A DNA stretch of 64,000 bases from an uncultured Phycisphaerales bacterium (GCA_963758525.1 CAVWVQ010000001.1:192001-256000); one strand, 5' to 3'. Positions 13,991 to 50,611 are shown, counted from the first letter of the stretch. Numbers and translations: made by a program. Notes: a model not told the origin generated them from the sequence alone.

Positions 13991-13994
13991 CGAC

Positions 13995-14927: not shown

Positions 14928-14937
14928 GCCTCGTCGC

Positions 14938-17536: not shown

Positions 17537-17540
17537 AGCC

Positions 17541-18014: not shown

Positions 18015-18017
18015 GCT

Positions 18018-18127: not shown

Positions 18128-18143
18128 CGCAGGAGCGTTCCCA

Positions 18144-18578: not shown

Positions 18579-18601
18579 GATCATCCGCCATCCGGCCTGC
18601 G

Positions 18602-18711
18602 GGAGAACCAGCCAATGCTGTGGACGGCCCCGCGTCGCGTCGAAAGTTTGTCCTTGGTATAGTGCTCCTCGGCGCGTCGCGTTGCCCGCCACGGAACGTC
18701 ATCCGTTAATG
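18602..18711 (+). repeat. attC site
   Basis: GGAGAAC...GTTAATG. Confidence 0.85.
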
Positions 18712-18727
18712 CTCCAAAGGTCTTCCG

Positions 18728-19258
18728 ATGGGATTCCGCGTGCAACTGATCGCTGTAACGGGGAAGGAACCGCGTGCAATCCAGCGGGACTACGGCGTCC
18801 TGCCCTCGGGTGATCGCGAAGAAATTCCCGAGTCCCCGATCGTCGGAGCAGCGCTGCCAAACGACGTCTATCTGCTGTACATCAACGACCCGAGCAAGAT
18901 CATTCCTGATGATAAGGTCTTCGCTCGTCTCTCAGAAGGCGCGTCGCTGGTTGCCTGTTACGCCAACGAGACCGTAATGAACAGCTATAGCTGCGGTTGG
19001 GCAAACGGCGCAGAGAAGTGGTCTGTTTTCCACGACGCCCAACAGGATATCAAACACCTTGAAACGAGCGGGAATCTTCCGCCGGAGTTCCACGCCATTC
19101 GCGATCGACTTTTCGCGGAGCAAGAAGGCGGTGATGGTGGCACTGACTTCGTTTTCGATATCCCAGTCGAGTTGTTTGCCGCTCTTGGGGGCATCAGATA
19201 CGACCATGACATTCCGGGTGCGGGACCTGACCCGTGGGAAATTCTGGACCCGCAGTAG
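18728..19258 (+). CDS. Cassette hypothetical protein
   Basis: 176-aa ORF between attC sites. Confidence 0.7.
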   Translation: MGFRVQLIAVTGKEPRAIQRDYGVLPSGDREEIPESPIVGAALPNDVYLLYINDPSKIIPDDKVFARLSEGASLVACYANETVMNSYSCGWANGAEKWSVFHDAQQDIKHLETSGNLPPEFHAIRDRLFAEQEGGDGGTDFVFDIPVELFAALGGIRYDHDIPGAGPDPWEILDPQ

Positions 19259-19268
19259 CAGCGGTGCG

Positions 19269-19365
19269 GGATAACAAGTCGCTGCAGCTGACCAGGGCCG
19301 CATTATGGTTCTTCGAGCGCCACTGCCCTTGCAGCGGCCCCGGCAGGTGAGCTTGGTCGCTATAC
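19269..19365 (+). repeat. attC site with mutated core (GCT instead of GTT)
   Basis: GGATAAC-aag...gctgaccagggccgc...gcggccccggcaggtgagcttggtc-GCTATAC. Confidence 0.65.
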
Positions 19366-19383
19366 GCTCGCGGCCGCAAAGCG

Positions 19384-19866
19384 ATGAACGTACTTCAAGT
19401 CGATAGTGCTCGCCCCATCAAAGGCTGCTCATCTGCCGCGGAAGCGATTTCGGCGGCGAAGGGAAATCCGCGGCAGCCGAAGGCACGAGCGGACGGCGCG
19501 TTGCTTGCCGGTCAATCTTTCGTGGGTGGACGCGCCACGTATTCGCGATGGTGTCTTGAGTTCACCGGACCAAAATTTGTTGACATCATTTGTGGCAACG
19601 ACGAGGTCGAGTGGCAAGTCACGCAGGAACCGCCATCCTTTGAAGATTTGTCCGAGGCGCATGCGCTTCAATGGACGTCAGGCATCGAAAGCACAATCGA
19701 TCCATCGGCGCTGTTTGCGAACCGCGCAGGTGCGGAGTTCTGGCAACTTTGGGTGAACGAAGCAGGCTTTTATGTTTATCTTCGTCGAAAGTTGATCCTG
19801 AACTTTCACGCAGTGCGCAGCGTTGATGATCGGTCGTGCATTCTCGCGGTGTGCGAGGACGACTAG
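19384..19866 (+). CDS. Cassette hypothetical protein
   Basis: 160-aa ORF followed by a decayed attC resembling 8381-8481. Confidence 0.6.
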   Translation: MNVLQVDSARPIKGCSSAAEAISAAKGNPRQPKARADGALLAGQSFVGGRATYSRWCLEFTGPKFVDIICGNDEVEWQVTQEPPSFEDLSEAHALQWTSGIESTIDPSALFANRAGAEFWQLWVNEAGFYVYLRRKLILNFHAVRSVDDRSCILAVCEDD

Positions 19867-20202
19867 CGCGAGGTATCACCCAACGCCGCACTGGACCGGC
19901 CCGGCGGAACGGGTCCTCGTGATTCGAGAGTTGGTCGGCGCCGGGGAAACCGAGGGTGCAAGCACCCCCGGCGTTCGGGGAGTCGGCAGGTGCCTGCAGC
20001 AACGTTGCGGCTATGGCAGAACGAGCGGTGGTCATTGATGGAACGCACGACGCTGAATTTGAAAGCCGCGCGGTGCTGGCACACTCGGTTCTTCGACTTT
20101 CCGCGAGACGACGCCCCGGCGGCACGCTACGATGCGCGAAGCCGCAGTCGGGTCAGTTCAACAGACGTTATCCCGCAAACGACGAATATTGGAGATCCGA
20201 CG

Positions 20203-20742
20203 GTGTCACACCTCCACGCGCGAAGCAGCGCTGCTACCCTCGCAACCTTCATTGCTCTGCTTGGGGGATGCGCAGCATCAGCGAACAAGGGTGCCGCGAC
20301 AGTCGAAGCAAAACCGTCGCTCGAAGTTCCATACGCTGTTTCCTTTGAAGGCGCCCAAGACGTATTCGGCCGAAACGCCGTCGGTGATGCGATTGTGGTT
20401 ACCGCAGTCCACGGAACCGCTGCAACGATCGCGATTGGCAATACCTATCGCATTGACGGAGCATATACCTTGGCATCACACGAGCAGGCGATGCTCGCAG
20501 CATTCGCGACGGCCACTGTGCCCGACGAACCCCATCGACAAATGATCGCGGGGCAGTCACTCACGATCAAAAAAGGGTCGGGGACTTTCACGCTCTTCCT
20601 GAAGGTAGAGGATCCCGAATGCCCGCATGTCAGTTTTTATCCGAGCGGCGGCGGTGAGAGCTTTGCGGGAGAATACTTTGGTACAGGTAGCTTCATTCCG
20701 CCTGAATCCTGGCGGCTTAAGACCCAAAGCGCGGTACGCTGA
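20203..20742 (+). CDS. Putative lipoprotein, last cassette-like ORF
   Basis: Lipobox LLGGC; flanked by ~120-bp imperfect direct repeats (about 20049-20173 and 20752-20865). Confidence 0.55.
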   Translation: MSHLHARSSAATLATFIALLGGCAASANKGAATVEAKPSLEVPYAVSFEGAQDVFGRNAVGDAIVVTAVHGTAATIAIGNTYRIDGAYTLASHEQAMLAAFATATVPDEPHRQMIAGQSLTIKKGSGTFTLFLKVEDPECPHVSFYPSGGGESFAGEYFGTGSFIPPESWRLKTQSAVR

Positions 20743-20938
20743 CGGGAGCGGGACGCTGAATTTGAACGCCGCGCGGTGCTCGCACCCTCGGTTCTTCGAC
20801 TTTCCGAGAGACACTGCCCCGGCGGCACGGTACGATGCGCCAAGCCGAAGCGGGTTCAGTTTGGCACACCTCATCCATCGTGCGAAAACCCCGAGGAGCG
20901 GCGTTCAGTTGCAAGCAATCTCACTTGCCGGATAATCC

Positions 20939-37387: not shown

Positions 37388-37726
37388 TCACCCGGCTCTG
37401 CGCTGGTTCATGACTAGTCGCAACCCTTCCGCCACCATTTGGGACCGCTTGAGTTTGTGCCGTTTCGCGAACGAGTCCGCCTCCTTGAGGAGGGTGCGTT
37501 CGATGCTGACGGACATCACCTTCGCGCCGGCGCCGACGGTGGGGCGTCCGCGCACCTTCCGCTGGAAGCGCTTCCATATCTTGCGTTCCGCGGCATTGAG
37601 GGGACGGGACTCCGAAAGCGGAACTTCTCCGCGCTCAAATATCGCCAGCTCCGCAGCTTTCTCGGCCGGGGAAAGTGCCAGGAATTTTTCCACCGCATCC
37701 GGCTCGCGCCGCTTTGCCTTTTTCAT
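37388..37726 (-). CDS. Putative antitoxin with C-terminal RHH-like domain
   Basis: RGRPTVGAG...VSIERTLLKEADSFAKRHKLKRSQMVAEGL; lies downstream of a BrnT-like gene. Confidence 0.6.
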   Translation of the reverse strand: MKKAKRREPDAVEKFLALSPAEKAAELAIFERGEVPLSESRPLNAAERKIWKRFQRKVRGRPTVGAGAKVMSVSIERTLLKEADSFAKRHKLKRSQMVAEGLRLVMNQRRAG

Positions 37727-37749
37727 AAGAACGCCTTTCTTCGTTTGCA

Positions 37750-37998
37750 TCATCGCCGCCGCCGGCCGGTCATTGGCATCGCGTGAATGATGTAGTACAC
37801 CCCGTCGCGATCGATCACGTATGCCACCTGGACCCATCGATCGCCGACGCCACGGCCGATGACTTGCCATTTGTCATCCCTGACGCGCCGGGGATACGGG
37901 CGCGCGCCGCCCGCACGACGCGCTCCGCCTCCCAGACCGAACGCCGTGCCTGGCCGCATGTTCAAATTCCAGTCGTTCCAGCGGAATTCCGCTTTCAT
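37750..37998 (-). CDS. BrnT-like toxin (possibly with internal indels)
   Basis: EFRWNDWN...VIGRG...VAY...YYIIHAMPMT. Confidence 0.6.
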   Translation of the reverse strand: MKAEFRWNDWNLNMRPGTAFGLGGGARRAGGARPYPRRVRDDKWQVIGRGVGDRWVQVAYVIDRDGVYYIIHAMPMTGRRRR

Positions 37999-38095: not shown

Positions 38096-38359
38096 GTGCG
38101 GCAAGCGGATGACTTCCGGTGGAACGATGCGAACTTGGAGCATGCGACGAAGCACGGCTGCACGATCGCTGAGATCGAGCATCTGCTGCTGAATATTCCG
38201 CACGGATTTCCGCGCAGGATTGATCGCCACAAACGGCTGGTCATAGGACGCGGGCAGGGCGGACGACTCATCAGGGTGATCTACCTGCTCGATCCGCCGC
38301 CCGATGCTGCTTACTACGTCCTCCACGCCATGCCGCTGACATCGCGGCGCAGGCGGTGA
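38096..38359 (+). CDS. BrnT-like toxin
   Basis: FRWNDANLEHATKHG...VIGRGQGGRLIRVIY...YVLHAMPLT. Confidence 0.7.
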   Translation: MRQADDFRWNDANLEHATKHGCTIAEIEHLLLNIPHGFPRRIDRHKRLVIGRGQGGRLIRVIYLLDPPPDAAYYVLHAMPLTSRRRR

Positions 38360-38394
38360 GGATCAACACCCGGCAATGCCGGGGGAAAGGCCAC

Positions 38395-38742
38395 ATGGCT
38401 CGCAAAACTGAAAAGGAACCAGCGACAGGCCGTGACTTCGAAGCCCTGCCGCGCGCCCAACGGGAGCGGATCATGGCGGAGCTTGACGCGGCCTCGACAG
38501 AGGAGCTGCTGGCCCGCTCCAAGCCGCTCACTCGCTCGCAAGCCGCCGCCGAGCGACGTCTGTGCGATGCGGTGAACGATCGCCGGGGACGCGGACGCCC
38601 AAAAGTCGGCAAGGGATCAAAACTTGTGGCTGTCACGCTTGAACAAGGTCTGCTGGAGGAAGTCGACCGTTTCGCCAAGCGGAAGAAGATGAAGCGTTCA
38701 GAGATGATTGCCAGCGGACTGAGACTCCTGATGGCTTCATAG
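38395..38742 (+). CDS. Putative antitoxin with RHH-like domain
   Basis: Paralog of 37388-37726 (RGRPKVGKG...FAKRKKMKRSEMIASGL). Confidence 0.65.
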   Translation: MARKTEKEPATGRDFEALPRAQRERIMAELDAASTEELLARSKPLTRSQAAAERRLCDAVNDRRGRGRPKVGKGSKLVAVTLEQGLLEEVDRFAKRKKMKRSEMIASGLRLLMAS

Positions 38743-38854: not shown

Positions 38855-38882
38855 ACTTAACATAACATGGATTATCGGACGT
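38855..38882 (-). other. dif site (XerC/XerD), left prophage junction
   Basis: Minus strand ACGTCCGATAA-TCCATG-TTATGTTAAGT has the 11-6-11 layout; E. coli dif is GGTGCGCATAA-TGTATA-TTATGTTAAAT. Confidence 0.88.
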
Positions 38883-39203
38883 GCAGAAGGGCGGCCAGAG
38901 AGGCCTATAACCGGCGGACACCGTTGATAGGTGCCCGCCAGCTAGAAGCCCACGGACTCCGGCCTGATGATAAGAGCCGGGCCGTGGAGAGCCCAAGTGT
39001 ACGTCCGAATATGCCCCGAGGCAAGAAATCATCATATCACCATTGACTGACTGCTAGCGGCTTCTAACCCGCTGCGCCAGATACCACCGGTGGGCTTCTA
39101 CTCCACCAACGATACCACCTATTGAACCAAACCCCGGCCCGACGTCAAGTGCCCTGCCCAGCAAAAATTAATCTTTTTTCGTCCCCAGCGCCGATTTGAG
39201 AGC

Positions 39204-39371
39204 GTGCCCGCCACAAAACCATTCAACCTCGACGACGCCTACAAACTCCAAAACATCTGGCGCGGCATGCGCGTCCTATGGCTCCCAATCACATTCGCTT
39301 TTTTCGTCGGCATGGGGATAACCATCCTCAAGGCACTTTTCACGCGACGCCCTCCAAGACGCCGACGATAA
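39204..39371 (+). CDS. 55-aa single-TM peptide with basic tail
   Basis: Own translation: MPATKPFNLDDAYKLQNIWRGMRVLWLPITFAFFVGMGITILKALFTRRPPRRRR. Confidence 0.45.
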   Translation: MPATKPFNLDDAYKLQNIWRGMRVLWLPITFAFFVGMGITILKALFTRRPPRRRR

Positions 39372-39444
39372 TTCTCGGATTACAACCCACCACCCCTTGA
39401 CAGCGATGCAATCGACCTGTAACGCGCCGCAGGCCTGCAGGCAG

Positions 39445-40443
39445 TCACCACAATTTTGCCCCCTTGCTGGCCAGCACCAACCGCCACGCCCGCAACCCCA
39501 CCAGAAACCCCAACCCCAACGCGCTCGACTCCCCATACAAATGCAGCGCGCCCTCCAACCCCGCCAGCTGCGACGACCACGGCGACAACTCCACCGCAGC
39601 GCGCGAGAGGCGCGGAGCCACTCCTCCCCCGGCCGAACCCCACGGCGCGATCGGCCAAGACGCCACGTCGTCCGCCACCACCGCCCCGCCCACGAACCGG
39701 TTATCGGACGCTCGACCACCCGCCGAATACATCCCGTTCAGGATGTTGGTTCCCCAACCCTCGCAATCATTTCCGGTTATCAAAACATTGCTCTCGCCCA
39801 TGATTTCAATAGCGGTCTTGGCCCACAACGACACGCCCGCATCCGGCCCGGTCTGCAATAACACATTATTGCTTATCGTAATGTTGCTGCCGAACCCCAC
39901 CCACTCGGACCCGTCCCAATATCCGCCCGTCGCGCACGAAATCCCGATGTGCGAATCAACCCCGGCCCCGTCAACATGCGGCAACCAAGAGGACATCGAA
40001 TTACCGTCGACCAAAAGATGCGTCATACCCTTTTGTAGCTCAATCCCGATCCGCGTCGCATGCGTGATCACGTTCCCTTGCACCGTCAGCCCGTCACAAG
40101 CGGCCGACAGATGCACCGGCTCGTAAACCGCATCAAACGTGTTGCCCACGATCCGGCCACCGTCCCCCGGGTAGCCATAAATACCGCTACCACTCACCCC
40201 CGAAAACGTGCAACCAACGATCGACCAGTCACGCGCCCCCGCCCCTATAAAGATTGCGTCCCCATCAATGCCACTGAAGCTCGACCCCTCCACCACCACC
40301 CCGACCGCCCCATCCGCAATCACGACCTGCACACCTGGTCCGGTCACACCCCGCAACGAATCGCCCGACCCCAGCCGCACAACCGACCCACACGCACCCG
40401 AGGCCCACAACAGCAGAAACACGCAACACCGCCGCTGAGTCAC
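39445..40443 (-). CDS. Secreted right-handed beta-helix protein with C-terminal minor-coat-like module
   Basis: Signal-like N-terminus; repeats such as IVGNTF, TVQGNVI, VDGNSM, NITISNN, ITGND; tail similar to 47560-47697. Confidence 0.7.
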   Translation of the reverse strand: MTQRRCCVFLLLWASGACGSVVRLGSGDSLRGVTGPGVQVVIADGAVGVVVEGSSFSGIDGDAIFIGAGARDWSIVGCTFSGVSGSGIYGYPGDGGRIVGNTFDAVYEPVHLSAACDGLTVQGNVITHATRIGIELQKGMTHLLVDGNSMSSWLPHVDGAGVDSHIGISCATGGYWDGSEWVGFGSNITISNNVLLQTGPDAGVSLWAKTAIEIMGESNVLITGNDCEGWGTNILNGMYSAGGRASDNRFVGGAVVADDVASWPIAPWGSAGGGVAPRLSRAAVELSPWSSQLAGLEGALHLYGESSALGLGFLVGLRAWRLVLASKGAKLW

Positions 40444-40504
40444 ACCCAGGTCAGTCACCCCAATTCCAAGCAATCCACGCATTTCTCGTCGCACTCTTTT
40501 CCCT

Positions 40505-40690
40505 CCCTGACACGGCGACCCCCCAATGACCCCATCAAACCGTCCAGCAGCTGCATGAAAGCGCCGCACGTCCCCGCCCCACAGAAGATCGGGCCCACGA
40601 ACGACCGCGAACCCCGCCGCCTCAAACCCCCGATCCATCAGGCCAATGCCCGGAAACAACGAAAGCACGACGCCGGCACACTCACACATC
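40505..40690 (-). pseudogene. N-terminal fragment of a C5 cytosine DNA methyltransferase
   Basis: Motif I VLSLFPGIG...GFEAAGF and motif IV GGSPCQ; no ENV or later motifs. Confidence 0.7.
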
Positions 40691-40861
40691 ACGCACCACC
40701 TTCCCGGAGGGTCACACCACTCCACAAACAACACCAGCGGAAACACCCACAACCGATGCCACCGTGACACGCCCGGCCGAAACTCCAACCGCCACGCGAC
40801 GCCACACGCTCGACAAAAGCGCCCCATCACGCACCACCTTTCTCTATTACTTGCCGACACC

Positions 40862-41038
40862 TCATCCTGCGTACTCCTCATGCTCCCGGATCAAACGACG
40901 GGCAGACTCCTCGATCACTTCCCGCACCGAAGCGCCCCCGCCCAACTCGCGTCGCACGTCACCGACCATCCGCGCCCACGCCTCGACCAGCAAAGTAAAG
41001 ATCTCTCCCACCTCGCACACACACTTGTCACCTGCCAT
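40862..41038 (-). CDS. 58-aa phage hypothetical protein
   Basis: Own translation MAGDKCVCEVGEIF...HEEYAG with an aagga RBS after rep. Confidence 0.4.
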   Translation of the reverse strand: MAGDKCVCEVGEIFTLLVEAWARMVGDVRRELGGGASVREVIEESARRLIREHEEYAG

Positions 41039-41052
41039 AGCGCACGTCCTTT

Positions 41053-42080
41053 CTAAATCGGCAGCCGATCGCAGTGACGCACAGGAGCCGGAGCCGGCTC
41101 ATCTGGCAGAAGCTTGCGATCGCCGTCACTCATCCTCGAATGCCCCCTTGCAAGCAGATTCTGGAGAAACATTTCCGCCCAGGCGTCACCCTGTTCTCTC
41201 TTATGCCACTCATGAACCATCGCCAGACGCCGACTTACTGTTCTCTCCAACCATCGCTGCATCGCCTCAAGCTCCTCCACCTCCTTCGGGTAGACCTTCA
41301 CCGCCGCCACGCCGAAGCCACCCCCGGATCGTCTCCCAAAACGGAGCCCGCCGGCGGCGCTCGACATGCAACGCGCGATCCTGATAGAAGTCGATCGACC
41401 CAGCCACCAACTCCCCAATCCGCCGAACCAACTCAGCGCCGGTGTACACGCCAAGCAGCTTGTCCCACACCGCGTCGGCATGAGCCTTAAAAAACCGTGC
41501 CTCATACCTCACCGCGTTAATCTCGCCATCCGATTCCGCCGCCTTGTCATACACGCACACCACCCGCCCGCCTTCACGCTCACCGAAATAAATCGTGTTC
41601 CCCTGCCGCCCCCCCTTGCCATCCCCCTCCTGGTGATGGCGGTGGCGACCCGGCCCAAACAATCGCGGCTCTGCATACCGCTCCCACAAGTCCGCCACCT
41701 CAATCACGCGCTCGAAGTCATCGAACGCACAATCCACCCGCGTCGCCTTGACCCCATGCACCCCACGCAGCCGCAACAGAAACCCCGCCATCGTCTCCGC
41801 GTCCAGCTGCGCAAGCCTGGCCGGTCACGTTCAGACAGACATCCGGCCTCGAGAACTCATCAGGGCCGCCATCCTCACACGGCGAGAAATTCAGCGTCAC
41901 ACCCGCCGTAAAGGCGTAGTGGCACCGATACCCCCGCACAACGCCGAACCGTTCCTCATGCGGCCACCCGAACACCTCTTCCACGATGTGCAGCAACGCC
42001 CCAATCTCCGTTGCCGGCGTCACAAACGTCAGCCAATCCAAACGAAGGACAGAACGACGTACACCACTTGGCGCATCCAT
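41053..42080 (-). CDS. Rolling-circle replication initiator, Rep_trans family (two frameshifts)
   Basis: RLDWLTFV, TRVDCAFDD, GNTIYFG, VYDKAAE, RYEARF spread over three frames. Confidence 0.85.
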
Positions 42081-42102
42081 GCTTACTCCGACTTGTCAAT
42101 CT

Positions 42103-42128
42103 GGACCCCCTGTTAGAGGGTGGGGTCC
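42103..42128 (-). other. Candidate double-strand origin (nick-site hairpin)
   Basis: GGACCCC-accctCTAACAG-GGGGTCC just upstream of rep; resembles Rep_trans/MOBT nick sites. Confidence 0.55.
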
Positions 42129-42329
42129 CCACAGACCACCACCCGCCCCGCCCCACAACGACAACGCCTACTCTCACAACAGCGCCCGCCGTCGACATCC
42201 ACCGCCAACCGAATGCGTCCACCGAAGACGATCACGACGACCCCGCCGCCCGGCAACGTCACCAACTCGCGAACGCACTCGAACCGAGAGACATCAAACC
42301 ACGCCTCAGAGTTTTCATTTTCCCGCCCG

Positions 42330-42700
42330 CTCGAGCCGGCCCGAGCTCCGCCAGCCGGTCCCCGCCTTTGCTCAGAAACGCATTTACACGACGTGCGCAT
42401 ATGTCCACCTCGTAAAGTGTCAGATCTGATTCAATCGCAGAGCAGGGGGCGGCCCCCCTGCAACCCCCGGAAGGCGGCTCCGCCTGAAGGAAGCCGGCAA
42501 CAGCACCGGCCACGCCGGCAGCAAGCCCACCACTCCCGCAACAGTGCTGCCGTCATGTCCGGTGCAGATGCCGGCAGAAAGTGAGCGCTGCGCACAAGGA
42601 CGCTGCGCGGCCAATCTTTTTCCACCGCTCGCTGGGACGGAAGCGAGCGGCGGAAAAAAAATGTGCGGGGGGATGTTCCTGCCCGCACTCTCACGATGCC
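42330..42700. other. Hairpin-rich intergenic region (candidate single-strand origin/packaging signal)
   Basis: Several stems (cagggggcggcccccctg; ttttttccaccgctcgct...agcgagcggcggaaaaaa) between pIV and rep. Confidence 0.45.
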
Positions 42701-42744
42701 GCCGCGCTTCGCTTACCACCCGGCCCGGCCGGAAAGGATCCACC

Positions 42745-43155
42745 ATGGCACGCCCCACCGAACTGATCGAGATAGACGGAGAAATCGAACACTTACGCCG
42801 ACGCATCAACGATCTCACGCAATCACTCGCCGTCACAGACGCAACGGCGGACCTCGCGCGAAAGGAACTCGCACGGCTCAACGCGTACATCGGCGGAGTG
42901 CACGGCGAACACGGCCGCGGTATCGGAGCGTTACAGCAGACTTGCGCGGACCTCATCAAGAGCCTCGACGCGGTCGCAACCGAAACACAAAAGCGGCTCG
43001 ACGAGATCCGCGCCAACCTCGACGAGCTCGACGACATCGTAGAGAGCCACCTCAAGGTCACGCAGAGACTCGACGCCCGCCAAAACCAAGCACACGACTG
43101 GCTAACAGCGTTAGAAGCTCGCATAGCGCAACTCGAGGCAGACGACAACCCCTGA
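42745..43155 (+). CDS. Coiled-coil phage protein on the opposite strand
   Basis: aagga RBS plus ATG; heptad pattern. Confidence 0.6.
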   Translation: MARPTELIEIDGEIEHLRRRINDLTQSLAVTDATADLARKELARLNAYIGGVHGEHGRGIGALQQTCADLIKSLDAVATETQKRLDEIRANLDELDDIVESHLKVTQRLDARQNQAHDWLTALEARIAQLEADDNP

Positions 43156-43196
43156 TGGATCAACACGCCGGCGGCGCACCCGCGCCGCCGGCACAG

Positions 43197-43433
43197 TCAC
43201 ACGTCCCCCGCCGCCGAGTCACAGCCTGGCGAGTCACACATCCCCACCACCGGCGACGGCCCACCCCCGTCCCGCACCGCACGCCACACCCGCTGCGCAT
43301 CCGCCCCGTGCGCGAACTCCACGCGCCCGCCCACGAAGGAAATCACCAAGCGGTCCGAACCCTCCCACCGCACCGACGCCACGTAGCGCAGCACAATCAC
43401 CGTACGACCCAAGACCAACCGTTCGTCCGTCAC
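43197..43433 (-). CDS. 78-aa phage hypothetical protein
   Basis: GTG start overlapping the secretin stop codon. Confidence 0.45.
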   Translation of the reverse strand: MTDERLVLGRTVIVLRYVASVRWEGSDRLVISFVGGRVEFAHGADAQRVWRAVRDGGGPSPVVGMCDSPGCDSAAGDV

Positions 43434-44902
43434 CGTCCACCTGCCTTTGCTACCGCTATCGCCGCCTCTGCCGCCGACAACCGATCCTGATCGGCCCGGT
43501 ACACGGCTTCCCACTCACGGCGAATCGCCAACACGTCACGCCCGACCTCCTCGACCGATCTATCCACCGGAGCCGGCCCCCGCCCAGGCACGTCTACCGG
43601 CCCCACCGGCTTGAGCGGCACGTCCGGCGACCCGCTCGGCCTAGGGGCCTCGCTCCCGCCGTCCGTCCGCTCCACCGGCCCGCCTGTACCCCGGCCCACG
43701 CGCGTCACGCTGGCCCACAGCTGGACGACCCGGCCGGAGCTCTCCGCGTCCGCCAACGATTGCAGCCCCAGCGTATGACTCAGCGTCCACGTGCGGCGCT
43801 CCACCTCGCCCACCAGCGCCGTCCCACCAACGTCGATCGGGGCCGAGGCGGCGAACTGGAAACCGGTCGTCGTCGGAACCCCCTGATCAGACAGCGCCAG
43901 CAACGACGTGCTGGAATAATCCACCGTCAACGCAGCACGATCCGTCCCGGCCGGACGAACAGTCAACGTCACGTCGAGGCCCACCCGATAAGGAACCAAC
44001 GTGCTTTGCGTTTGCGTCCCCTGATCATTCGTCGCCGACTGCGGCAACAGGTACGTCGTCCCATCCGACAACTTCCCCGGCACGCCGCCCGCCAGCACCA
44101 TCAGCGGCGACACCAGCGCCCGCACGTGATTGTTCTCATGGCTCGCCACAATCATGGCCTGCAACATCGCGCTTGCCACCGTCGTGACTCCACCGGTCGC
44201 GACATGGCCCAACACGCCCTGGAGCGTCACAGTCGCCGAACCGTCCCACCCCACCTTTTGCAGAAACTCGCGCGACACGTCGAACGCGTAGACGTGAATC
44301 AGCCACGCATCCGCCGGCGCCGCATCAAGCTGCGCCAACACATCGCCTATCTTCTGGTCGATTTCCACGCTGTCACCCACGACTACGATTCCGTCCTCGG
44401 TCACCGAAAGCCGCCCGGCGTCCGACAGATAGACCCGCAACAGCGCATCCAACTTATCCGGCGCGACCCGAGCACACCGACCAACGAGAACCGCGCGATC
44501 CTGCGGCCGCAATGAGCCGATAAACCACAACGACCCCAGGCGAGTCACATCCGCCCCAACGCGCCTCGCGACCGCCGCCAGCACGTCGCCCACCGGCACG
44601 CCCTGCACCCGAATATTCACTGTTGACTTATCCAACTTGGCCTCACAGATCGCCGACACGCCATCATCCACCGCCAGCCGCCCGAGGAACTGCTCGAGCG
44701 TTATGCCCTCCGCTGACAACGAAACGCGCGCCCCCGTGTCCCGTGTCTGCAGCGCCGACGCCACCGGCAGCGCTGCCGAGTACGCCGCCCGGAACTCCCG
44801 CTCCGCCCGCAACTCCGGCGCTTCTTGGCACCCAATCGCGACCGAGAGCCACATGCCGCACCACCCCGCGCCGATCGAACGTAGCAACGCCTTCAACATC
44901 AT
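43430..44902 (-). CDS. pIV/GspD-like secretin
   Basis: Lipoprotein-like signal, N0/N3-like region, secretin-like C domain (GKLSDG...VGLDVTLTVRP...GGTALVG); follows zot. Confidence 0.75.
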   Translation of the reverse strand: MMLKALLRSIGAGWCGMWLSVAIGCQEAPELRAEREFRAAYSAALPVASALQTRDTGARVSLSAEGITLEQFLGRLAVDDGVSAICEAKLDKSTVNIRVQGVPVGDVLAAVARRVGADVTRLGSLWFIGSLRPQDRAVLVGRCARVAPDKLDALLRVYLSDAGRLSVTEDGIVVVGDSVEIDQKIGDVLAQLDAAPADAWLIHVYAFDVSREFLQKVGWDGSATVTLQGVLGHVATGGVTTVASAMLQAMIVASHENNHVRALVSPLMVLAGGVPGKLSDGTTYLLPQSATNDQGTQTQSTLVPYRVGLDVTLTVRPAGTDRAALTVDYSSTSLLALSDQGVPTTTGFQFAASAPIDVGGTALVGEVERRTWTLSHTLGLQSLADAESSGRVVQLWASVTRVGRGTGGPVERTDGGSEAPRPSGSPDVPLKPVGPVDVPGRGPAPVDRSVEEVGRDVLAIRREWEAVYRADQDRLSAAEAAIAVAKAGGR

Positions 44903-46100
44903 TCACCACCTCAAGCCGCCAACCCAACGCGGCACCACTCTCCACAGTTTCGCCCACACGCAACACGGCCCCATCCTCAAACACGACCTCTTCCCGACGC
45001 ACGAGCACCAGGCGAACAACCCCCACGCGATCGTCGACCAACGCCGGCCGACCAGCCGCTGCCCCCCCCCCCACACCACCTCCACCCCGATATCGCCCCC
45101 CGCCGAGCTCAGTCACACGATGCCCACCCACGCCCTGGTCGGTCACCCCCGCAGGCCCAGCGCCTTGTGACGCCGGCAACGCGGCCCGCATATTCTTCGC
45201 AGCAAACCCCCCGACCCCCGACACGATGCCGTGCACGAGGCACCCGCCGCCGCCACAGACGAAAAACAACGGCAACCACAAAAGCCAAGACCGCATCAAC
45301 AACGCATAAAAGTGCTTCGACACGAACCAATTGATCAGGCCCGGCCAAGACCGCCGCTCATACTCCCTCTTGCGCGGCCCGCCCGCCTGCCCGCCCCCCG
45401 ACTCCGGCTTGGAGTAGCTGTCGTAGAGCTCAAAGTACCGAGGCAGAAGGTAGTGAAACTTTTCGCGCTCGCGGATGAAGCGCGCATTAACTTCGCGCCC
45501 CAGTGTCTCCCAAACCGCCGCAAGATATGTCCCGGTAAGTTTTGCGCGTAATTCATACCAATCTCCGAGCTCGATGTGAAAAAACGGGTCGGGGCGCTCA
45601 TCACTATGAACGAGCTCACGACGGAGCCCGCTCTCATTCTTGATAACGCGCGCCACCTTCATCTCGTTCTGACTTAGAAATTCTATAGTCGCCCCCTGAT
45701 GCCGAATCGTCCCCAACCATTTCTGCCACTGCGCCAGATATGACATCTTCGCCCCGACCCCCGCATACTCATGGATTTCGTCAATGGCGATATGGGTATC
45801 GGCCAACGATTGCCCCTTGAAGAAATCCCACGGGCCGCGCTGCCCCAGCCGCCACGCCGCCAACTCCTCCTCCGGGAAACGATGCAGCCGCGCCTCATAC
45901 TCATCAGCATCGCCATTCTTATTCTTCGACCACTGCGCCGCCAAGACCGCCAACGTGCGCGGCTCATACGGAAAGTTGCTCCAATGATGCAAGTTCGTTT
46001 CCGGCAGCAACTCCTCCGAGAGGAATTTCGCACACCGCAGCAAACTCTTGCCGCTGCCGGCCCGCCCCACTGTGAATTGAACCGACGTCCTGACGGCCAT
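44664..46100 (-). CDS. Zot/pI morphogenesis ATPase (3' end probably frameshifted at the G-run near 45065; real stop near 44903)
   Basis: Walker A GRAGSGKS, Walker B IAIDEIH, RHQG...SQ, LYDSY, then a TM segment. Confidence 0.88.
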   Translation of the reverse strand: MAVRTSVQFTVGRAGSGKSLLRCAKFLSEELLPETNLHHWSNFPYEPRTLAVLAAQWSKNKNGDADEYEARLHRFPEEELAAWRLGQRGPWDFFKGQSLADTHIAIDEIHEYAGVGAKMSYLAQWQKWLGTIRHQGATIEFLSQNEMKVARVIKNESGLRRELVHSDERPDPFFHIELGDWYELRAKLTGTYLAAVWETLGREVNARFIREREKFHYLLPRYFELYDSYSKPESGGGQAGGPRKREYERRSWPGLINWFVSKHFYALLMRSWLLWLPLFFVCGGGGCLVHGIVSGVGGFAAKNMRAALPASQGAGPAGVTDQGVGGHRVTELGGGRYRGGGGVGGGAAAGRPALVDDRVGVVRLVLVRREEVVFEDGAVLRVGETVESGAALGWRLEVVNDVEGVATFDRRGVVRHVALGRDWVPRSAGVAGGAGVPGGVLGSAAGGVGAADTGHGGARFVVSGGHNARAVPRAAGGG

Positions 46101-46226
46101 ACTACTCCCAATCCTGCAACGCAACCCACAACAGCGCGGCCATCCCCCACCCGCAAAGCGCCAGCTTCACCAACAAGTCGACCACCACATCGGACCGCAT
46201 CGCGACTCCCTGGACAGTCACGCCCC

Positions 46227-46490
46227 TCAGAACAGCCGCACGACCAGCTTGACGCAAAAGTACACAATGAACGACACCAGAAACCCCGCGAGGAGCTCAC
46301 AAAGCGTATCCAGTGGAAACCACAGATTGAGCAGCGAGCAGTACGTCGCAAGCGTCGCCAGCGTTGCGTTAGTCGGGATCGTCGGCAGCGGCGCGACCGC
46401 CAGTTGCAGCAACGTGTACCCGAGCTCGCACGCCCAATTCTCGAGGTACCCCAAGAAGTTCAGCAGCGCCTGCAACACGTAATAAATCAT
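46227..46490 (-). CDS. pVI-like minor coat protein
   Basis: 87 aa, hydrophobic, located between pIII and pI. Confidence 0.7.
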   Translation of the reverse strand: MIYYVLQALLNFLGYLENWACELGYTLLQLAVAPLPTIPTNATLATLATYCSLLNLWFPLDTLCELLAGFLVSFIVYFCVKLVVRLF

Positions 46491-46493
46491 GGG

Positions 46494-47521
46494 TCACCAG
46501 TCCTTCAACGTCTTCCACAACAGCCAACAAAACGACATGACCAAAAAGAATGTCGCCACCCCACGAACCGTGCCCTGCGCCCCCGACACAGCCGAACCAT
46601 AAGGCGTACCGTTCAGCGTGAACGACCCCGACTGCGGGTTAACGTCGATGCGGATTTCCGACCCGCCAAGCACACTCGGCAGATGCCAATCGACCGGCTC
46701 CAACGTCATCTGTTCAGAGAGATTCGCCGAACTGAACTGCGCGGCGAATGGAAACTTCGTGGTCAGCAACGTCTCAATCTCCCCCATGCAACTGGGCGCC
46801 GTCGTCGCGGGTTGCGTTGTCGGAGAAGGGCTGGTCGTCGTCGACGTGTCAGACGCCCCGGTAGTCGGGGCCAGCCCCGTAATCGTGATCTGCGCGTACC
46901 CCGGCGGCACCGAGTGCGACGCCCACGCATTTTGCCCTCCATTCAACGCGGTGAACAACGGCGAGAATGCCATCGTCACGTAGTAATTCGTCGCCCCGCC
47001 ACCCGACGGATACGACACGGGATCTTCCCCAAAATCCCCATTCAGCTTCGTGGCCGACGAATACGGCTCGCGCCAGTAGAACGTGTTGACATCGGTCCCC
47101 TGATCCCCAGCGTACACCTGGACCCCACCAATCCAGACCTGATACCCCGTCGCGTCGAGCTCGATCTTAAAATCCACCTCGAGCCGATCCCCGTTCGGAA
47201 CGTACGCCGACCCGCTCCAGCGCCACAAATCCAAAGCAAACGTCCCCTCATAGACGCCATTACTCCCGCTAGACCCCAACCCGCACTGGACCGTCAGCAA
47301 GTTTTGAAATGAAGGGAACCCCGAATTAACTTGGCCCGGCGGCAAGAACACGTCCGGGAACCCCGCCCGTGGGTATTGCGTCAGCGCCCCGACAGGTCCC
47401 CGTAAAAGAGGCTGCTCCCGTATTGGTACGCTACCGTCGCTTCCGCCTGAAAATCCACCGGATTGCCAGCCGCCCCACCCGCCACGACCGACAAGGCCAG
47501 CGCCACGAAGGCAACCCGCAT
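46494..47521 (-). CDS. pIII-like attachment protein (frameshift near 47385)
   Basis: Signal peptide MRVAFVALALSVVAGGAAG, Thr/Pro linker, KFPF motif, C-terminal TM anchor. Confidence 0.7.
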
Positions 47522-47559
47522 CGCACCCAGCTCAGTCACACCACCGCCCATCGCACGCC

Positions 47560-47697
47560 TCAAAAGAATTTGGACATCTTGGAGAGCATCACCAAGCGCC
47601 ACAGCTGCAACCCGACGAGGAAACCGACGCCGAGCGCTATCGCCTCACCATATAGATTGATGGCACCCATCAACTGGCTGAACTGGTCATCCGTCAT
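47560..47697 (-). CDS. 45-aa pVII/pIX-like minor coat protein
   Basis: MTDDQFSQLMGAINLYGEAIALGVGFLVGLQLWRLVMLSKMSKFF: acidic N-terminus, TM, basic C-terminus, within the structural cluster. Confidence 0.6.
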   Translation of the reverse strand: MTDDQFSQLMGAINLYGEAIALGVGFLVGLQLWRLVMLSKMSKFF

Positions 47698-47831
47698 ACG
47701 CTTCCGACCCCGAGCACTCATGCTCAACCTTGCAATGCCAGTACGCGGCCGACATGGACTTGACAATGTCACCACACATCGGACACCGCAACGTCACACC
47801 AGTACCGTAAGACACGGCGACCTCCAATCAC

Positions 47832-47872
47832 AAAAGGGGAGCGGAGCGCCCGCAACGCAGGCGCCCCGCTCA
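47832..47872 (-). terminator. Rho-independent terminator after the major coat gene
   Basis: gagcggggcgcctgcgttgcgggcgctccgctc followed by cccTTTT. Confidence 0.55.
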
Positions 47873-47887
47873 GGCGGAAAACCGGGA

Positions 47888-48130
47888 TCAGCCACCCTTG
47901 ACGCCGCGACGCGCCCACTTCCAGAACGCGGCGAAGATCACCAGCGCGATGAACACGCCGAACAAGACACCGAGAATGGTGCCCATGTTCGCCGCAGCCG
48001 CGGTGGTCAAGGAGCCAGCGTCAACGCCGAGATCAAACGGCGTGGAATCCGCGCGGGCCGTGGCCGACAGACCCACAAGAGCAGTGCACATCAACAGTGC
48101 ACCGACGATACGAGAACGGAACCGAGACAT
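47888..48130 (-). CDS. pVIII-like major coat protein
   Basis: gaggag RBS, signal peptide ending ARA, 53-aa mature protein with acidic N-terminus, TM and basic tail WKWARRGVKGG. Confidence 0.8.
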   Translation of the reverse strand: MSRFRSRIVGALLMCTALVGLSATARADSTPFDLGVDAGSLTTAAAANMGTILGVLFGVFIALVIFAAFWKWARRGVKGG

Positions 48131-48201
48131 AGAAACTCCTCATACATGACGACCACACCGGCCGTCCCTCTTACCGAGGCTTGACCCGCCAAACACCCTG
48201 G

Positions 48202-49319
48202 TCAGTCACCACCCACCATCCGACCTATCAACGCTTCCGCTTTTCCACGACACTCCACGCAGCGCGAGTTCCCCGCAATCACAGGAGCCCCACATTCCCA
48301 ACACGTAGGCGACTCCACCTCCTCCGCCTCACTCACAGCCCCCCCCGGCGAATTGTCCCCCAACTCGGAGCCCATCGACTCCAACGACTCTCCACCCGAC
48401 ACCTCCCCATACACATGATGCTCGACCGCCCCCACCACCGCGCCTTCGTTCGAGTCAATCACCATCCCCCCATCTTCGCCCGCCATCTGCCGCACGCACC
48501 GCCGACAAAAACCGCCGCCGTCACCATCGCGCTCAGCACGACTCAACCGAACCCCGCACCCGTCACACCGCCACGCATCAACCCCCGGCCCCTCCTCCAC
48601 CGCAGGCTCCGTCCCGCCTCCCACCGACCGCTTAGACCAAATCCAAAACGCGCCGAGGACCAAGAGCACAAGAACACACCGAAGATCAAACCCAGGTGAC
48701 CCCCCATCGCCGACGCCACGCTCGCCACCTTAGCCCCCACCGAACCCGAACCCGCCTTCCCCAAACCCGCCGAATCAAAGGTATAAGTGCCCGCCCCATC
48801 CCCCCCCCCACCGCCACCAGCCCCGCCACCCGAACCGCCACCACCCGAGCCACCACCGCCCGATCCGCCACCTGAACCACCGCCAGCACCGAAACCACTC
48901 CCAGGCGACGACCACAGGACCCCCGAGCCCGAAACCGTCCCATCCGTCCCCAGCGAAACGACATCGTCCACACCCGACGTCAGCACATCCGCCCCACTCA
49001 CCGCGTCCGCTTCTGCCGCAGCTAACGCCGACGAGTCACCCGCGAACCCACCGTCAAACACCACCCCACTCTCTGAATCGAAGCCCACACTCTCACGGGT
49101 CTCACCGGCGGAAACCGTATCGTAATAAAACGGCGAACCATCCACACTCACCAACTCAGTCACCCAAAACCCCTCATCATTAACGCCACCAACCAGGTTC
49201 GGAACCGAATCATCAGAAAAACTAATCGTCCGAGACTGCGCCCGACACACCCCCGGCAACACTAGAAATGCCAGCAGCCAAACCACAAGCACGGGTAGCG
49301 CACGACCAGTTGACCGCAC
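48202..49319 (-). CDS. Signal peptide + acidic domain + Gly/Ser linker + major-coat-like module + two Zn ribbons (one frameshift near 48670)
   Basis: Joining ORFs 48543-49565 and 48202-48669 restores MGGHLGLIFGVF-x-VLLVLGAFWIWSKRSVGG; four CxxC motifs follow. Confidence 0.55.
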
Positions 49320-49561
49320 CACACCACCCGCACCACCCACAGAACCAAGGTTACCGCAACAATCACGATCCGAGCACATACACACCACCTTTCGACCGCG
49401 CACACTGACGACACGACCAAGCCTCGCATCGCGCCACCCCACACACACACGCGACCCACGACACGAGGCACCATGCGACTCCACCAAAACCAGACCACCA
49501 CGACTCACAGTCGCCCCAACCCAACAACCGCAGCTATCGCACAACGCCACCAACGAACACA

Positions 49562-49720
49562 TCACCCACCCCCCACAGCCCGAGCCGCATGCCTGGCCAG
49601 CGCCCCAAACACATTCAGCGCCACCTGAATCGACACCATCAAACCCACCACAAGCGCCAGCGTCGCCACGAGCTCACCCAACACTTCCAACGGCACAAAA
49701 CCCGGATCAGGAATAGTCAT
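49562..49720 (-). CDS. 52-aa single-TM protein (minor-coat-like)
   Basis: Own translation MTIPDPGFVPLEVLGELVATLALVVGLMVSIQVALNVFGALARHAARAVGGG. Confidence 0.55.
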   Translation of the reverse strand: MTIPDPGFVPLEVLGELVATLALVVGLMVSIQVALNVFGALARHAARAVGGG

Positions 49721-49741
49721 CACTTGCCCTTAGAAAACGCC

Positions 49742-50050
49742 TTATCCACCCAACCCCAACCCCGCGCCGCCTGAATCAGCAGGTGGATCGTCAGGCCGCA
49801 CCCGAATCCCACCCCCACCCCGATCCGCAGGAGCTCCCACGCCGTCGCGACCTCGATCGTTGGCATTGTCGTAGGCATCGCGCCGAACCTTTCTCACCCC
49901 CAACAACAACCCCAAAACCGACGCGAGCATCATCGCCAACACGAACCGCCCGAACGCACAGGACGCACACGCCAGCACCATGACAACTCCCAAAACACCC
50001 AGCGGGGTCGCTAGACCCCGCCGAGCGGACAGAAACACACCGACCAGCAA
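49742..50050 (-). CDS. Small hydrophobic phage protein (boundaries uncertain)
   Basis: Two TM-like segments, position after pV. Confidence 0.4.
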   Translation of the reverse strand: MLVGVFLSARRGLATPLGVLGVVMVLACASCAFGRFVLAMMLASVLGLLLGVRKVRRDAYDNANDRGRDGVGAPADRGGGGIRVRPDDPPADSGGAGLGLGG

Positions 50051-50431
50051 CTACCTCGCAGCCTGGGCAGTCACAGGCCCAGCACCATTTCCGGGAGCCT
50101 TCACCGCCGCAGGCATGCCGCGCTTGCGGATGCCCATCGCCGTCAGGTCACATTCCGCCAACAGCGCTTCCGGCTCAAAAGACACCACACGCAAAACCGT
50201 CGTGCGGCCGTACGTCTCCTCCTCCACGTCCACGTTGACCACGATCGGACCACCGGCAGCGATCGTCCCCGCAAAATCGGTCGCGATCGCCTTCGTCGTC
50301 CGATACGTCTTGGCCTCATAGCCAAAGGCGCCCGTCTTCTTGGTCACACTGCCCATGAGCGCCCACAACTCGCTGTAGTCACGCCCGTCATCTGCCACAC
50401 GCGGGTTCGCACCCGTAACAATCAGACGCAT
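50051..50431 (-). CDS. pV-like ssDNA-binding protein
   Basis: 126 aa, beta-rich OB-like pattern (GRDYSEL...GAFGYEAKTY...VVNVDVE), first gene of the structural operon. Confidence 0.6.
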   Translation of the reverse strand: MRLIVTGANPRVADDGRDYSELWALMGSVTKKTGAFGYEAKTYRTTKAIATDFAGTIAAGGPIVVNVDVEEETYGRTTVLRVVSFEPEALLAECDLTAMGIRKRGMPAAVKAPGNGAGPVTAQAAR

Positions 50432-50583
50432 ACCGGCCTCTCTTTCTATTGCGAGCCTATCACTCGCCACCACACTCCAGACCGACAGCGCACGAGAACG
50501 CCCCGCCCGCTGGTCAGAGTTAAAAAGCGCAAAAATTGAAATAAACGTTAATGCCGCAAGAATCGGCAAAAACCCCTCTTTTT

Positions 50584-50611
50584 CAATTGCATAACATGGA
50601 TTATCGGACGT
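50584..50611 (-). other. dif-like site with degenerate XerD arm, right prophage junction
   Basis: ACGTCCGATAA-TCCATG-TTATGCAATTG. Confidence 0.85.

Follow-up and report, generated by a model that had tools for sequence, protein, structure and literature searches.

A dif-integrated inovirus prophage in a probable planctomycete, with putatively exported domains fused to duplicated coat proteins

The window analysed here, a 64,000-nucleotide stretch of a 6.47-Mb genome, contains a prophage of 11,729 bp bounded by an exact 22-bp direct repeat (38861-38882 and 50590-50611). Such 22-bp pairs are expected by chance about 4e-4 times in 64 kb; the repeat was measured directly and lies outside the top 20 of a generic repeat search. 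It falls within the only two dif-like sites found in the genome at six mismatches or fewer, both on the minus strand. The first (38855-38882) is an intact dif, ACGTCCGATAA TCCATG TTATGTTAAGT, that matches the consensus of sites from 28 relatives and is read as attR, with the XerC arm contributed by the phage and the XerD arm by the host on either side of the central 6 bp; the flank downstream of it is similar to the empty site of two same-genus genomes, G001 and G002. The second (50584-50611) shares the XerC arm and the central 6 bp with the first and departs from it in the XerD arm, TTATGCAATTG, where five of the six outer positions are changed and the inner TTATG is kept. Comparison of the arms identifies it as attL, in which the XerC arm comes from the host, the XerD arm from the phage and the central 6 bp are unchanged; G001 and G002 have the same 6 bases upstream of their empty site. 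The strand skew of the element (GC -0.30, AT +0.25) exceeds the maxima of 547 same-size host windows (0.128 and 0.157, respectively). Along the six-contig assembly the GC skew is flat and marks no replication terminus; the dif site is single-copy and conserved. Pfam- and PHROG-type profile searches matched no integrase inside the element, the closest tyrosine recombinase being 32 kb away. These results bear out the original prediction, made from the sequence alone, of an integrase-free 11.7-kb element, sharply altered in strand composition, that has an intact dif on one side and on the other a dif copy degenerate in its XerD arm; the circle, which had been closed at 50590, is instead joined from 50611 to 38883.

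The genes lie on the minus strand unless stated otherwise and follow the predicted circular order, rep-cargo-attP-pV-coats-pIII-pVI-pI-pIV-intergenic region. The likely pV single-strand-binding protein (50051..50431) has no Pfam match and is named from its position and an Atlas feature match (0.91, below the recognition threshold) to a cluster with 25% CTX_RstB. It is followed by a small two-transmembrane (TM) ORF of uncertain start (49742..50050; seen by hydropathy, with no homolog found by search), a 52-aa single-TM protein that is a candidate minor coat by size and position (49720..49878), and a 53-aa single-TM protein with weak likeness to the major coat (49562..49723; score 57, reached by 0 of 2000 shuffles, yet the best host TM window scores 56). 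Beyond the Gly-linker gene discussed below lies the pVIII-like major coat protein (47888..48130), recognised by its signal peptide, TM segment and basic C-terminus, whose family has 43 matches across pI-related loci. The gene precedes a terminator-like hairpin (47839..47871; 15 pairs, 12 of them G-C), although such sites are no more numerous in the region than in shuffles, and a small CxxC...H..H zinc-finger-like ORF (47687..47827) with homologs in L123 and L153. For the stand-alone 45-aa protein encoded next (47560..47697) we infer a pVII/pIX-like minor-coat role from size, topology and position; its family has no Pfam or PHROG match and sits between the major coat and pIII in related loci. 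The pIII-like adsorption protein (46494..47551), identified by position and a C-terminal TM segment as in intact relatives, has its signal-peptide part and body in different frames, and the pVI-like protein (46227..46490) has homologs (best E 2.7e-7) that immediately precede pI in many loci. The Zot-like morphogenesis ATPase pI (44664..46100; PHROG 197, E 1.6e-7) has 22 homologs, and Pfam Zot is matched by 18 of 23 pI homologs, though not by the query itself. The expected phage-encoded secretin, pIV (43430..44902), is supported by PHROG 1012 (E 1.1e-6) and by profile matches to PilQ (E 1e-15) and f1 pIV (7ofh, E 9e-8), with GspD among the best secretin matches. The order from pV to pIV, the secretin and the hairpin after the major coat gene recall the Ff phages (f1/M13/fd).

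The region originally described as intergenic in fact holds two ORFs, one of 78 aa without matches (43197..43433) and one divergent on the plus strand with sub-cutoff coiled-coil matches only (42745..43155), together with a 17-bp-stem hairpin (42612..42663) that is a candidate packaging or origin signal. The Rep_trans rolling-circle initiator (41053..42080; PF02486, E 3e-18) is spread over three frames by two frameshifts; its C-terminal piece matches at E 0.067, and Rep is 37% identical to the intact Rep of G015. Downstream are a 58-aa ORF (40862..41038) and an N-terminal remnant of a C5 DNA-methyltransferase (40489..40689; PF00145, E 0.002, below cutoff) that is in frame with the next gene, a beta-helix fusion (39445..40443). 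An ORF call adds a divergent 55-aa single-TM protein on the plus strand (39204..39371). As had been stated, profile searches matched no repressor or HTH protein within the element.

The features by which inoviruses are recognised (Roux 2019) are present, namely a pI ATPase, a rolling-circle initiator (here frameshifted), single-TM coat proteins of 30-90 aa near pI and a genome within about 5-15 kb. The element is thus confirmed as an inovirus prophage, carrying Rep, pV, coats, pIII, pVI, pI and secretin, and the matches of its Zot-like pI and its Rep do not contradict that assignment. An alternative view, in which the Zot-like ATPase and the secretin belong to an island for secretion or pilus assembly, could draw on the prominence of PilQ and GspD among the secretin matches, and on the finding of nothing for pI or a Rep fragment by tblastn against 50,697 GenBank phage records. 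It is largely refuted, and very improbable, given the rolling-circle Rep, the conserved small coat families, the pIII-pVI-pI order, the extreme strand skew and the existence of circular relatives with terminal repeats (L155, L162, L164, L188, L200).

The prophage had been called complete-looking, a description qualified by four frameshifts in the assembly, two in rep and one each in pIII and the Gly-linker coat paralog. As rep and pIII are among those affected, the prophage may be dead. Real frameshifts in a decaying prophage, one that makes no virions now and whose fusions are relics here (functional in relatives), would account for four breaks within about 10.5 kb of coding sequence and for the truncated methyltransferase remnant, but this reading is improbable. 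The assembly is indel-prone, with 20 of 93 conserved host ORFs changing frame relative to G001 (a lower bound of 0.15-0.18 per kb), and glyQS, adjoining the prophage, is likewise split; 1.6-1.9 breaks would be expected, and four or more would arise with P ~0.08-0.13 (hand Poisson calculation). Moreover, no in-frame stops were seen, pI and pIV are intact, and close relatives sit on phage-sized contigs of 10,914 and 11,140 bp.

The best matches of glyQS, used as a single marker, are to Tepidisphaeraceae, Tepidisphaerales and Planctomycetota (77-80% identity), which backs the predicted planctomycete and makes a host in the Tepidisphaeraceae (Phycisphaerae) probable. Complete prophages of the same layout occur in four family members and a truncated one in a fifth. 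In a pI tree built without named inoviruses, which shows only these relationships, P0001, P0002 and P0004 cluster (support 99/99) and G015, G326 and G438 have distant pI proteins. Viral contigs yielded no confirmed relatives when searched with a single pI protein or with a beta-helix profile, and none of the 20 matched by a 15-base dif motif has pI, pIV or coat matches. The coat region of five family prophages includes a gene of PEP-CTERM or PEP-CTERM-like type; a -1 frameshift was considered for those of G015 and G020, and those of G062 and G326 are plain. Inoviruses of planctomycetes and filamentous phages of the TLC class have both been published before, and the novelty of the lineage implied by the original prediction was overrated, as five Planctomycetes inovirus species were reported from Pirellula, Jettenia, Planctomyces and unclassified hosts (Roux 2019; PMC6813254, supplementary files 4-5). 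These share the phylum, size (9.5-12.8 kb) and pI-based gene set of the present phage, and the supplements hold no entry beginning with Phycisphaer or Tepidisphaer and no mention of "XerC" or "dif site". No paper on dif integration in planctomycetes was found in the open-licence literature.

The attachment sites point to the mode of integration. There is a single 28-bp attP with a dif-like XerC arm, an identical central region and a degenerate XerD arm, the layout of the TLC/GGI class, whose filamentous members include phiLf, Cf1c and Xf-phi-f1 (PMC4246890, Table 2). Each of the five complete family prophages has matching central 6 bp at its two ends and a degenerate XerD arm. Judged from these sequences, the attP class is GGI/TLC and not CTX. 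VGJ is known for a central region that mismatches dif towards the XerD arm, which is not seen here. In GGI1, four of the six outer XerD-arm positions differ (PMC9226527), compared with five in this prophage. Differences from TLC/GGI elements are the host phylum and the lack of a repressor gene at attP. The rule of a G at position 5 or a T at position 1 (Miele 2022) fits 6/6 attL arms, such that six natural attP arms conform to sequence rules measured in Vibrio. The work also yields a dif consensus for Phycisphaerae; dif prediction had failed for Planctomycetes in Kono 2011.

Empty dif sites, anticipated in related genomes, are present in both G001 and G002, and the host encodes XerC, XerD and FtsK; with the att geometry, these support Xer-exploiting integration in this lineage, as proposed. 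The replicative form would recombine at dif through host XerCD, on a double-stranded GGI/TLC-type site. Unlike in TLC, XafT had no match over cutoff in any of five genomes searched for DUF3653, which we take to be the name of the XafT activator domain. The phage XerD arm keeps TTATG and so belongs with the arms that retain the inner five bases, for which integration by FtsK was possible in Vibrio (Miele 2022), and XafT would therefore not be required. The changed outer bases likely let FtsK strip XerD off attL, which would limit excision, as proposed for GGI. The inner arm is altered in four of six natural attP arms, and these four, with no XafT homolog found in their genomes, predict either an unrelated Xer activator or tolerance.

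In CTX-like integration, by comparison, XerC would act alone on a folded single-strand attP, and what looks like a degenerate arm would be half of a hairpin. The fold of the attP region is indeed more stable than that of shuffled sequences (z -4.9), an inverted copy about 120 nt upstream pairs with eight bases of the XerC arm, and G015 carries an inverted dif-like copy (p~0.003). A complete inverted site is nevertheless absent from this phage (p~0.07, with 25 of 280 internal windows scoring equally high), whereas the same hairpin test is clearly positive in L167 and L179 (p~0.003), and the identity of the central 6 bp at both ends is unlike CTX and VGJ (PMC4246890). The hairpin model is consequently disfavoured on sequence grounds and appears quite improbable. 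With CTX/VGJ of Vibrio cholerae the phage shares its filamentous type, Rep_trans, integrase-free dif integration and, as a lead, an RstB-like pV; it differs in having its own secretin, no inverted two-site hairpin and no RstR-like repressor that could be found.

What had been described simply as cargo is a beta-helix fused to a minor coat protein, and the coat fusions had been missed. The gene at 39445..40443, outside the coat operon and after rep, encodes a signal peptide, a predicted right-handed beta-helix of about 240 aa (PF13229) and a C-terminal second copy of the minor coat. This tail is 59% identical over 41 aa to the stand-alone minor coat (47560-47697) and scores 123 against it, compared with a maximum of 51 among 1998 host TM windows; the similarity at the DNA level extends to the stop codon. 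The host has seven chromosomal paralogs of the beta-helix, which was likely captured from this family. A Foldseek search with the model returned the HK620 and Sf6 tailspikes, PL6 alginate lyase and the PfbA adhesin (E~2e-4, 11-14% identity). The model thus has the right-handed beta-helix fold of phage tailspike depolymerases, but the matches are generic and name no activity, and the domain is shorter and is carried on a filamentous-phage coat helix rather than a tail. The sister protein P0025 is the same fusion (minor-coat HMM, 29.3 bits). Among 141 representatives of the minor-coat family, 20 have at least 90 residues in front of the coat; these passengers are mutually unrelated (0 pairs at E<1e-3) and include F5/8-C, Ig, Gly-rich and CE2_N-like Pfam domains. 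The 20 are stand-alone database sequences, and about three of them (P0087, P0118, P0133) seem to be products of a mis-called start or of read-through.

The second fusion (48202..49319) consists of a signal peptide, an acidic domain of about 110 aa, a Gly linker, a major-coat paralog and a Zn-ribbon tail. A one-base frameshift near 48670 interrupts the gene, and an in-frame Cys-rich stretch reaches up to 49562. Its coat segment scores 98 against the phage's own major coat, a value reached by 0 of 1998 host TM windows. The acidic domain has no Atlas match, and a single-sequence model of the protein has a pLDDT of 46. An apparent likeness of this domain to the pIII N-terminus of G015 was unsupported by phmmer. 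The sister phage retains both fusions, its P0032 having the Gly/major-coat design in one frame and without the Zn-ribbon tail; the P0032 tail matches the clade coat HMM weakly (E 0.04), and its score against the coat of this phage is 58. Intact genes of the signal peptide-domain-major-coat type occur in L178 and, more weakly, in L155.

The design matches laboratory display on pVII/pIX and pVIII, in which a signal peptide, passenger and coat are joined and wild-type coat is present alongside; here, unlike in Ff or the laboratory, the fusions are natural, the genes duplicated and the passenger host-related, and Ff does not integrate. N-terminal display on these coats is structurally allowed, according to passages in PMC10175506 and PMC4823517. 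The passenger would be exported by its signal peptide and anchored N-out in the inner membrane by the C-terminal coat helix, and pI would build the fusion into the particle together with the stand-alone coat, placing the minor-coat version at the round tip and scattering the major-coat version along the filament at low density. For the beta-helix, the most likely role would be to bind, and possibly cleave, surface or matrix polysaccharide. That a dif inovirus likely using the XerCD, GGI/TLC route carries its coat-fused domains as accessory surface proteins of some virions is, taken as a whole, a proposition with about an even chance of being right.

The coat-derived tails might instead serve solely as inner-membrane anchors, with passengers that stay periplasmic as accessory proteins in lysogenic conversion, envelope remodelling or superinfection exclusion; the prophage and its integration route would be unchanged. 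Consistent with this rather unlikely alternative, the frameshifted major-coat paralog runs on into its Zn-ribbon tail, a 130-aa cytoplasmic continuation that could not fit the virion lumen, and long C-terminal tails are also found on coat paralogs of L123, L152, L153, L155, L156 and G015. The beta-helix gene is housed in the rep/accessory block, and the PEP-CTERM genes of the five family prophages carry a host-surface sorting signal. The minor-coat fusions, however, stop where the coat stops and retain its basic C-terminus, and a plain anchor needs neither 59% identity to a specific coat nor recurrence on about 17 unrelated passengers.

Incorporation into the virion remains our working interpretation. 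More tentatively, and doubtful as yet, the phage may belong to a widespread, undescribed inovirus lineage with natural phage display, in which a spare tip or major coat acts as a cassette for swappable passengers, here a tailspike-like beta-helix derived from the secreted proteins of the host. No such fusions were met in the parts of Roux 2019 covered here, and the open-licence literature yielded no paper on natural fusions between inovirus coats and other domains. If this display reading is true, a filamentous virion would gain a polysaccharide-binding or -degrading tip. With the fusions on the particle, filamentous phages would evolve their surfaces by whole-domain capture onto duplicated coat genes, a receptor- or matrix-binding function would be added at the end opposite pIII, and the fusions would constitute naturally selected scaffolds for large N-terminal display.

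The filamentous element of 11,729 bp lies between two minus-strand sites, 38855..38882 and 50584..50611, sharing an exact 22-bp direct repeat (38861-38882 and 50590-50611, measured directly) with a chance expectation in the window of ~4e-4. Their arms are named XerC and XerD by the E. coli dif convention. Read on the minus strand, ACGTCCGATAA TCCATG TTATGTTAAGT at the left site makes up a complete dif; at the right site the XerC arm and central hexamer are identical to these and the XerD arm is TTATGCAATTG. This is the pairing of an intact dif with a degenerate copy that the original prediction described. The Vibrio dif layout follows the same arm convention (PMC9226527). No further dif-like site with six or fewer mismatches was found elsewhere in the genome (G000; six contigs, 6.47 Mb), in which the window spans C1:192001-256000. 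A lone match to the XerC arm plus centre (16/17), without an XerD arm, occurs at L199:5386 (G000:C3:2369385).

Host placement by glyQS, a single marker read by best hits, gave Tepidisphaeraceae, Tepidisphaerales and Planctomycetota metagenome-assembled genomes at 77-80% identity, the next match being at 65%, in keeping with the planctomycete host first proposed. The GC skew of the genome is flat and gives no terminus position, and dif prediction in Planctomycetes is described as unsuccessful by Kono (2011; PMC3025954). Host XerC and XerD each exceed their own NCBIfam cutoff, and FtsK was also found. With up to three mismatches, the 22-mer is present in 38 of 60 relatives (the unpublished G004 contributes one to this count and one of the 28 consensus rows, and none of the conclusions rests on it) and in 29 of 36 within the family; it is single copy in 36 of those 38, and a reversed 22-mer matched none of the same relatives. 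The consensus of 28 relatives' sites equals the intact site. In both same-genus relatives, G001 and G002, the prophage-flanking genes adjoin across a single dif, which is the empty site that had been anticipated. Because the six bases 5′ of the XerC arm in these empty sites match those 5′ of the degenerate site, the right site is attL, its degenerate XerD arm having arrived with the phage.

Several features lie outside the prophage. Two divergent toxin-antitoxin-like gene pairs (37388-37998, minus strand, and 38096-38742, plus strand; weak DUF4258 and RHH-like matches) occupy the interval from a KAS gene to dif, a stretch with no blastn match in the G001 and G002 loci. In G046, the strand opposite to dif bears two additional half sites resembling the XerC arm, ~430-510 bp away from it (L006:994-1072). 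An integron-like region at 5954-20900 comprises a tyrosine recombinase (5954-6970, minus strand) followed by about nine repeats of ~110 nt, together with two 2.3-kb units, 98.5% identical, with group II intron reverse transcriptases (10099-11460 and 15393-16754).

A Pfam Zot search was positive in 5 of 140 family genomes. Four (G015, G062, G326 and G438) carry prophages of 9.2-10.5 kb flanked by two dif-like sites, and the fifth, G331, has a 9.3-kb contig on which no dif-like site was found; G020 holds a truncated prophage. In these four complete prophages and in the window's own, both ends share one central hexamer and degeneracy is confined to the attL XerD arm, a geometry shared with the TLC class as defined by Das (2014; PMC4246890), whose members include phiLf, Cf1c, Xf-phi-f1 and GGI. 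CTX-type integration, in which an inverted dif-like partner folds with attP, would accord with the well-folded attP region of this prophage (z -4.9) and the inverted dif-like copy in G015, but the inverted partner in attP reaches only p~0.07, with 25 of 280 internal windows scoring equally high, whereas the same test detects the positive controls L167 and L179 at p~0.003. According to Miele (2022; PMC9226527), an inner TTATG is required for FtsK-driven integration, whereas an arm used in XafT-driven integration may have either G at position 5 or T at position 1; the differences of GGI1 lie in the outer six bases. The inner five bases of six attL XerD arms are TTATG (the window's prophage), AGAGG, AAGTG, ATACG, CTACG and TTTCA; all six, which are kin and not independent, obey the G-or-T rule, and the window's prophage, with its TTATG arm, is GGI-like. 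DUF3653, the domain of the XafT activator, was over cutoff in none of five genomes tested.

Among pI relatives further removed, the integration site is dif, in various geometries, tRNA-Met or tmRNA, and those at tRNA-Met carry what we read as a serine-recombinase-like gene. The circular contig L155 has one degenerate-arm site only. In two related prophages (L157:2555/14139 and L178:4562/13086) it is the XerC arm that is lost from the second site, with centre and XerD arm retained, which mirrors the present geometry. At G297:C1:~684000-707000 (L125-L126) lie two copies of a pI-pIV block, 93% identical and 18.6 kb apart, with neither dif nor tRNA found close by.

Starting at attL and following the minus strand, the order is pV, three small TM ORFs, a Gly-linker gene (48202..49319), a pVIII-like major coat (47888..48130), a 15-bp hairpin, a zinc-finger ORF, a putative 45-aa pVII/pIX-like minor coat (47560..47697), pIII, pVI, pI, pIV, two unknown ORFs, a hairpin with a 17-bp stem, Rep_trans and a beta-helix gene (39445..40443). 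An Atlas lead connects pV to RstB-like proteins. The pI protein hits PHROG 197, and some of its 22 homologs are assigned by name to Planctomycetota; 18 of the 23 pI proteins, the query not among them, match Pfam Zot. The predicted phage-encoded secretin is borne out by the pIV profile, which matches secretins including f1 pIV, and gene searches of the prophage yielded no HTH, repressor or integrase match, as expected. Neither pI nor the Rep fragment matched any of 50,697 GenBank phages. The reported shift in strand composition is equally sharp on measurement (GC skew -0.30, AT skew +0.25, beyond all 547 equal-size host windows).

The complete look first described is tempered by four frameshifts in the assembly, two in Rep and one each in pIII and the Gly-linker gene. 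The assembly as a whole is prone to indels: among 314 G001 ORFs of at least 300 aa, 93 passed an orthology filter and 20 of these change frame in the host genome (0.15 per kb), and a stricter cutoff gave 15 of 55. Four breaks in the prophage against 1.6-1.9 expected give P ~0.08-0.13 by hand calculation, so assembly error is likely, although the frameshifts may be real decay.

The gene after rep, originally taken as cargo, does lie there but is a coat fusion: from 40443 a signal-peptide-like stretch leads into a right-handed beta-helix (PF13229), and the protein ends in a tail that shares 59% identity with the minor coat over 41 aa. This tail scores 123 against the minor coat, compared with 51 for the top-scoring of 1998 host TM windows, and at the DNA level the similarity extends as far as the stop codon. 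Predicted confidence is mostly above pLDDT 70 over residues 21-250 and low in the C-terminal helix (290-327). Fold searches returned tailspikes, lyases and an adhesin (E~2e-4, 11-14% identity), matches that name the fold only and no activity. Seven chromosomal paralogs (43-58% identity) all lack the coat tail; three paralogs are in G001, and matches at E<1e-20 are confined to 4 of 140 family genomes. These findings make the host lineage the probable source of the captured domain. The Gly-linker gene combines a signal peptide, an acidic domain, a Gly linker and a segment that scores 98 against the phage's own major coat (best host window, 56). A Cys/His-rich stretch (49320-49562, minus strand) lies in frame ahead of its signal peptide and is conserved in P0032. 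That database protein, 65% identical, has the same design in a single frame and ends after the TM; P0025, 72% identical to the beta-helix protein, has the same coat fusion. These two and the pI protein P0004 (81% identical) are all on contigs of 10,914 bp and, given the equal lengths, probably belong to one sister phage. L178 (HMM 42.9 bits) and L155 (11.9 bits) each carry a domain-major-coat gene that is intact.

A minor-coat profile of 13 sequences, searched against 1.84 billion proteins, yielded 141 representatives. Of these, 114 stand alone, 7 are long proteins that match at their N-terminus, and 20, known from their protein sequences, have at least 90 residues in front. Most of these 20 open with a signal-peptide-like stretch, about three resemble gene-calling artefacts, and no pair of N-terminal parts aligned at E<1e-3. 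Pfam passengers among 22 proteins scanned were F5/8-C, Ig, Gly-rich and CE2_N-like, mostly below cutoff.

In f1, all coat proteins are described as N-out in the inner membrane, with pVII/pIX forming the round tip and open to display at their N-termini only (PMC10175506). Laboratory display uses signal peptide-passenger-coat fusions together with wild-type coat (PMC4823517), a design common to both phage genes, which makes co-assembly of the fusions into the virion beside the stand-alone coats the best reading. The main rival, in which the coat helix is put to new use anchoring proteins in the membrane, draws on the long cytoplasmic tails of some coat paralogs and on PEP-CTERM genes in other prophages of the family; we consider this anchor role less likely, though a real possibility.

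In five other dif prophages of the family, the interval from pV to the major coat includes a gene of signal peptide-domain-PEP-CTERM(-like) design (L196:3921-4343; L198:~12173-13123, minus; L197:6557-7105; L031:8127-8570, minus; L032:1218-1700, minus), over the Pfam cutoff in G062 and weak or motif-only in the other four. This is an exosortase-type signal in an inovirus; the window's prophage has no such gene. In G015 and G020 (L031:~8130-8230 and L032:~1180-1290, both minus) the PEP-CTERM end follows 7 or 9 consecutive T, beyond which the -1 frame reads as a paralog of the same phage's major coat; frameshifting could here switch one anchor for the other, or the two genes may overlap. Related inoviruses also carry accessory membrane enzymes, namely an acyltransferase/TraX-like gene and PEMT/ICMT-like methyltransferases (L196:10192-10779; L197:2666-3277; L164:3358-3999).

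Since five Planctomycetes inovirus species were already recorded by Roux (2019; PMC6813254) and filamentous phages of the TLC class have been described before, the advance in host range and integration route is incremental. In a search of open-licence literature, at the level of listings, neither natural coat-domain fusions nor dif integration in planctomycetes turned up as the subject of a paper. That the element is a dif-integrated inovirus is close to certain; for the whole model, in which such a phage would also co-assemble its coat fusions into the particle, we judge the chances to be about even.
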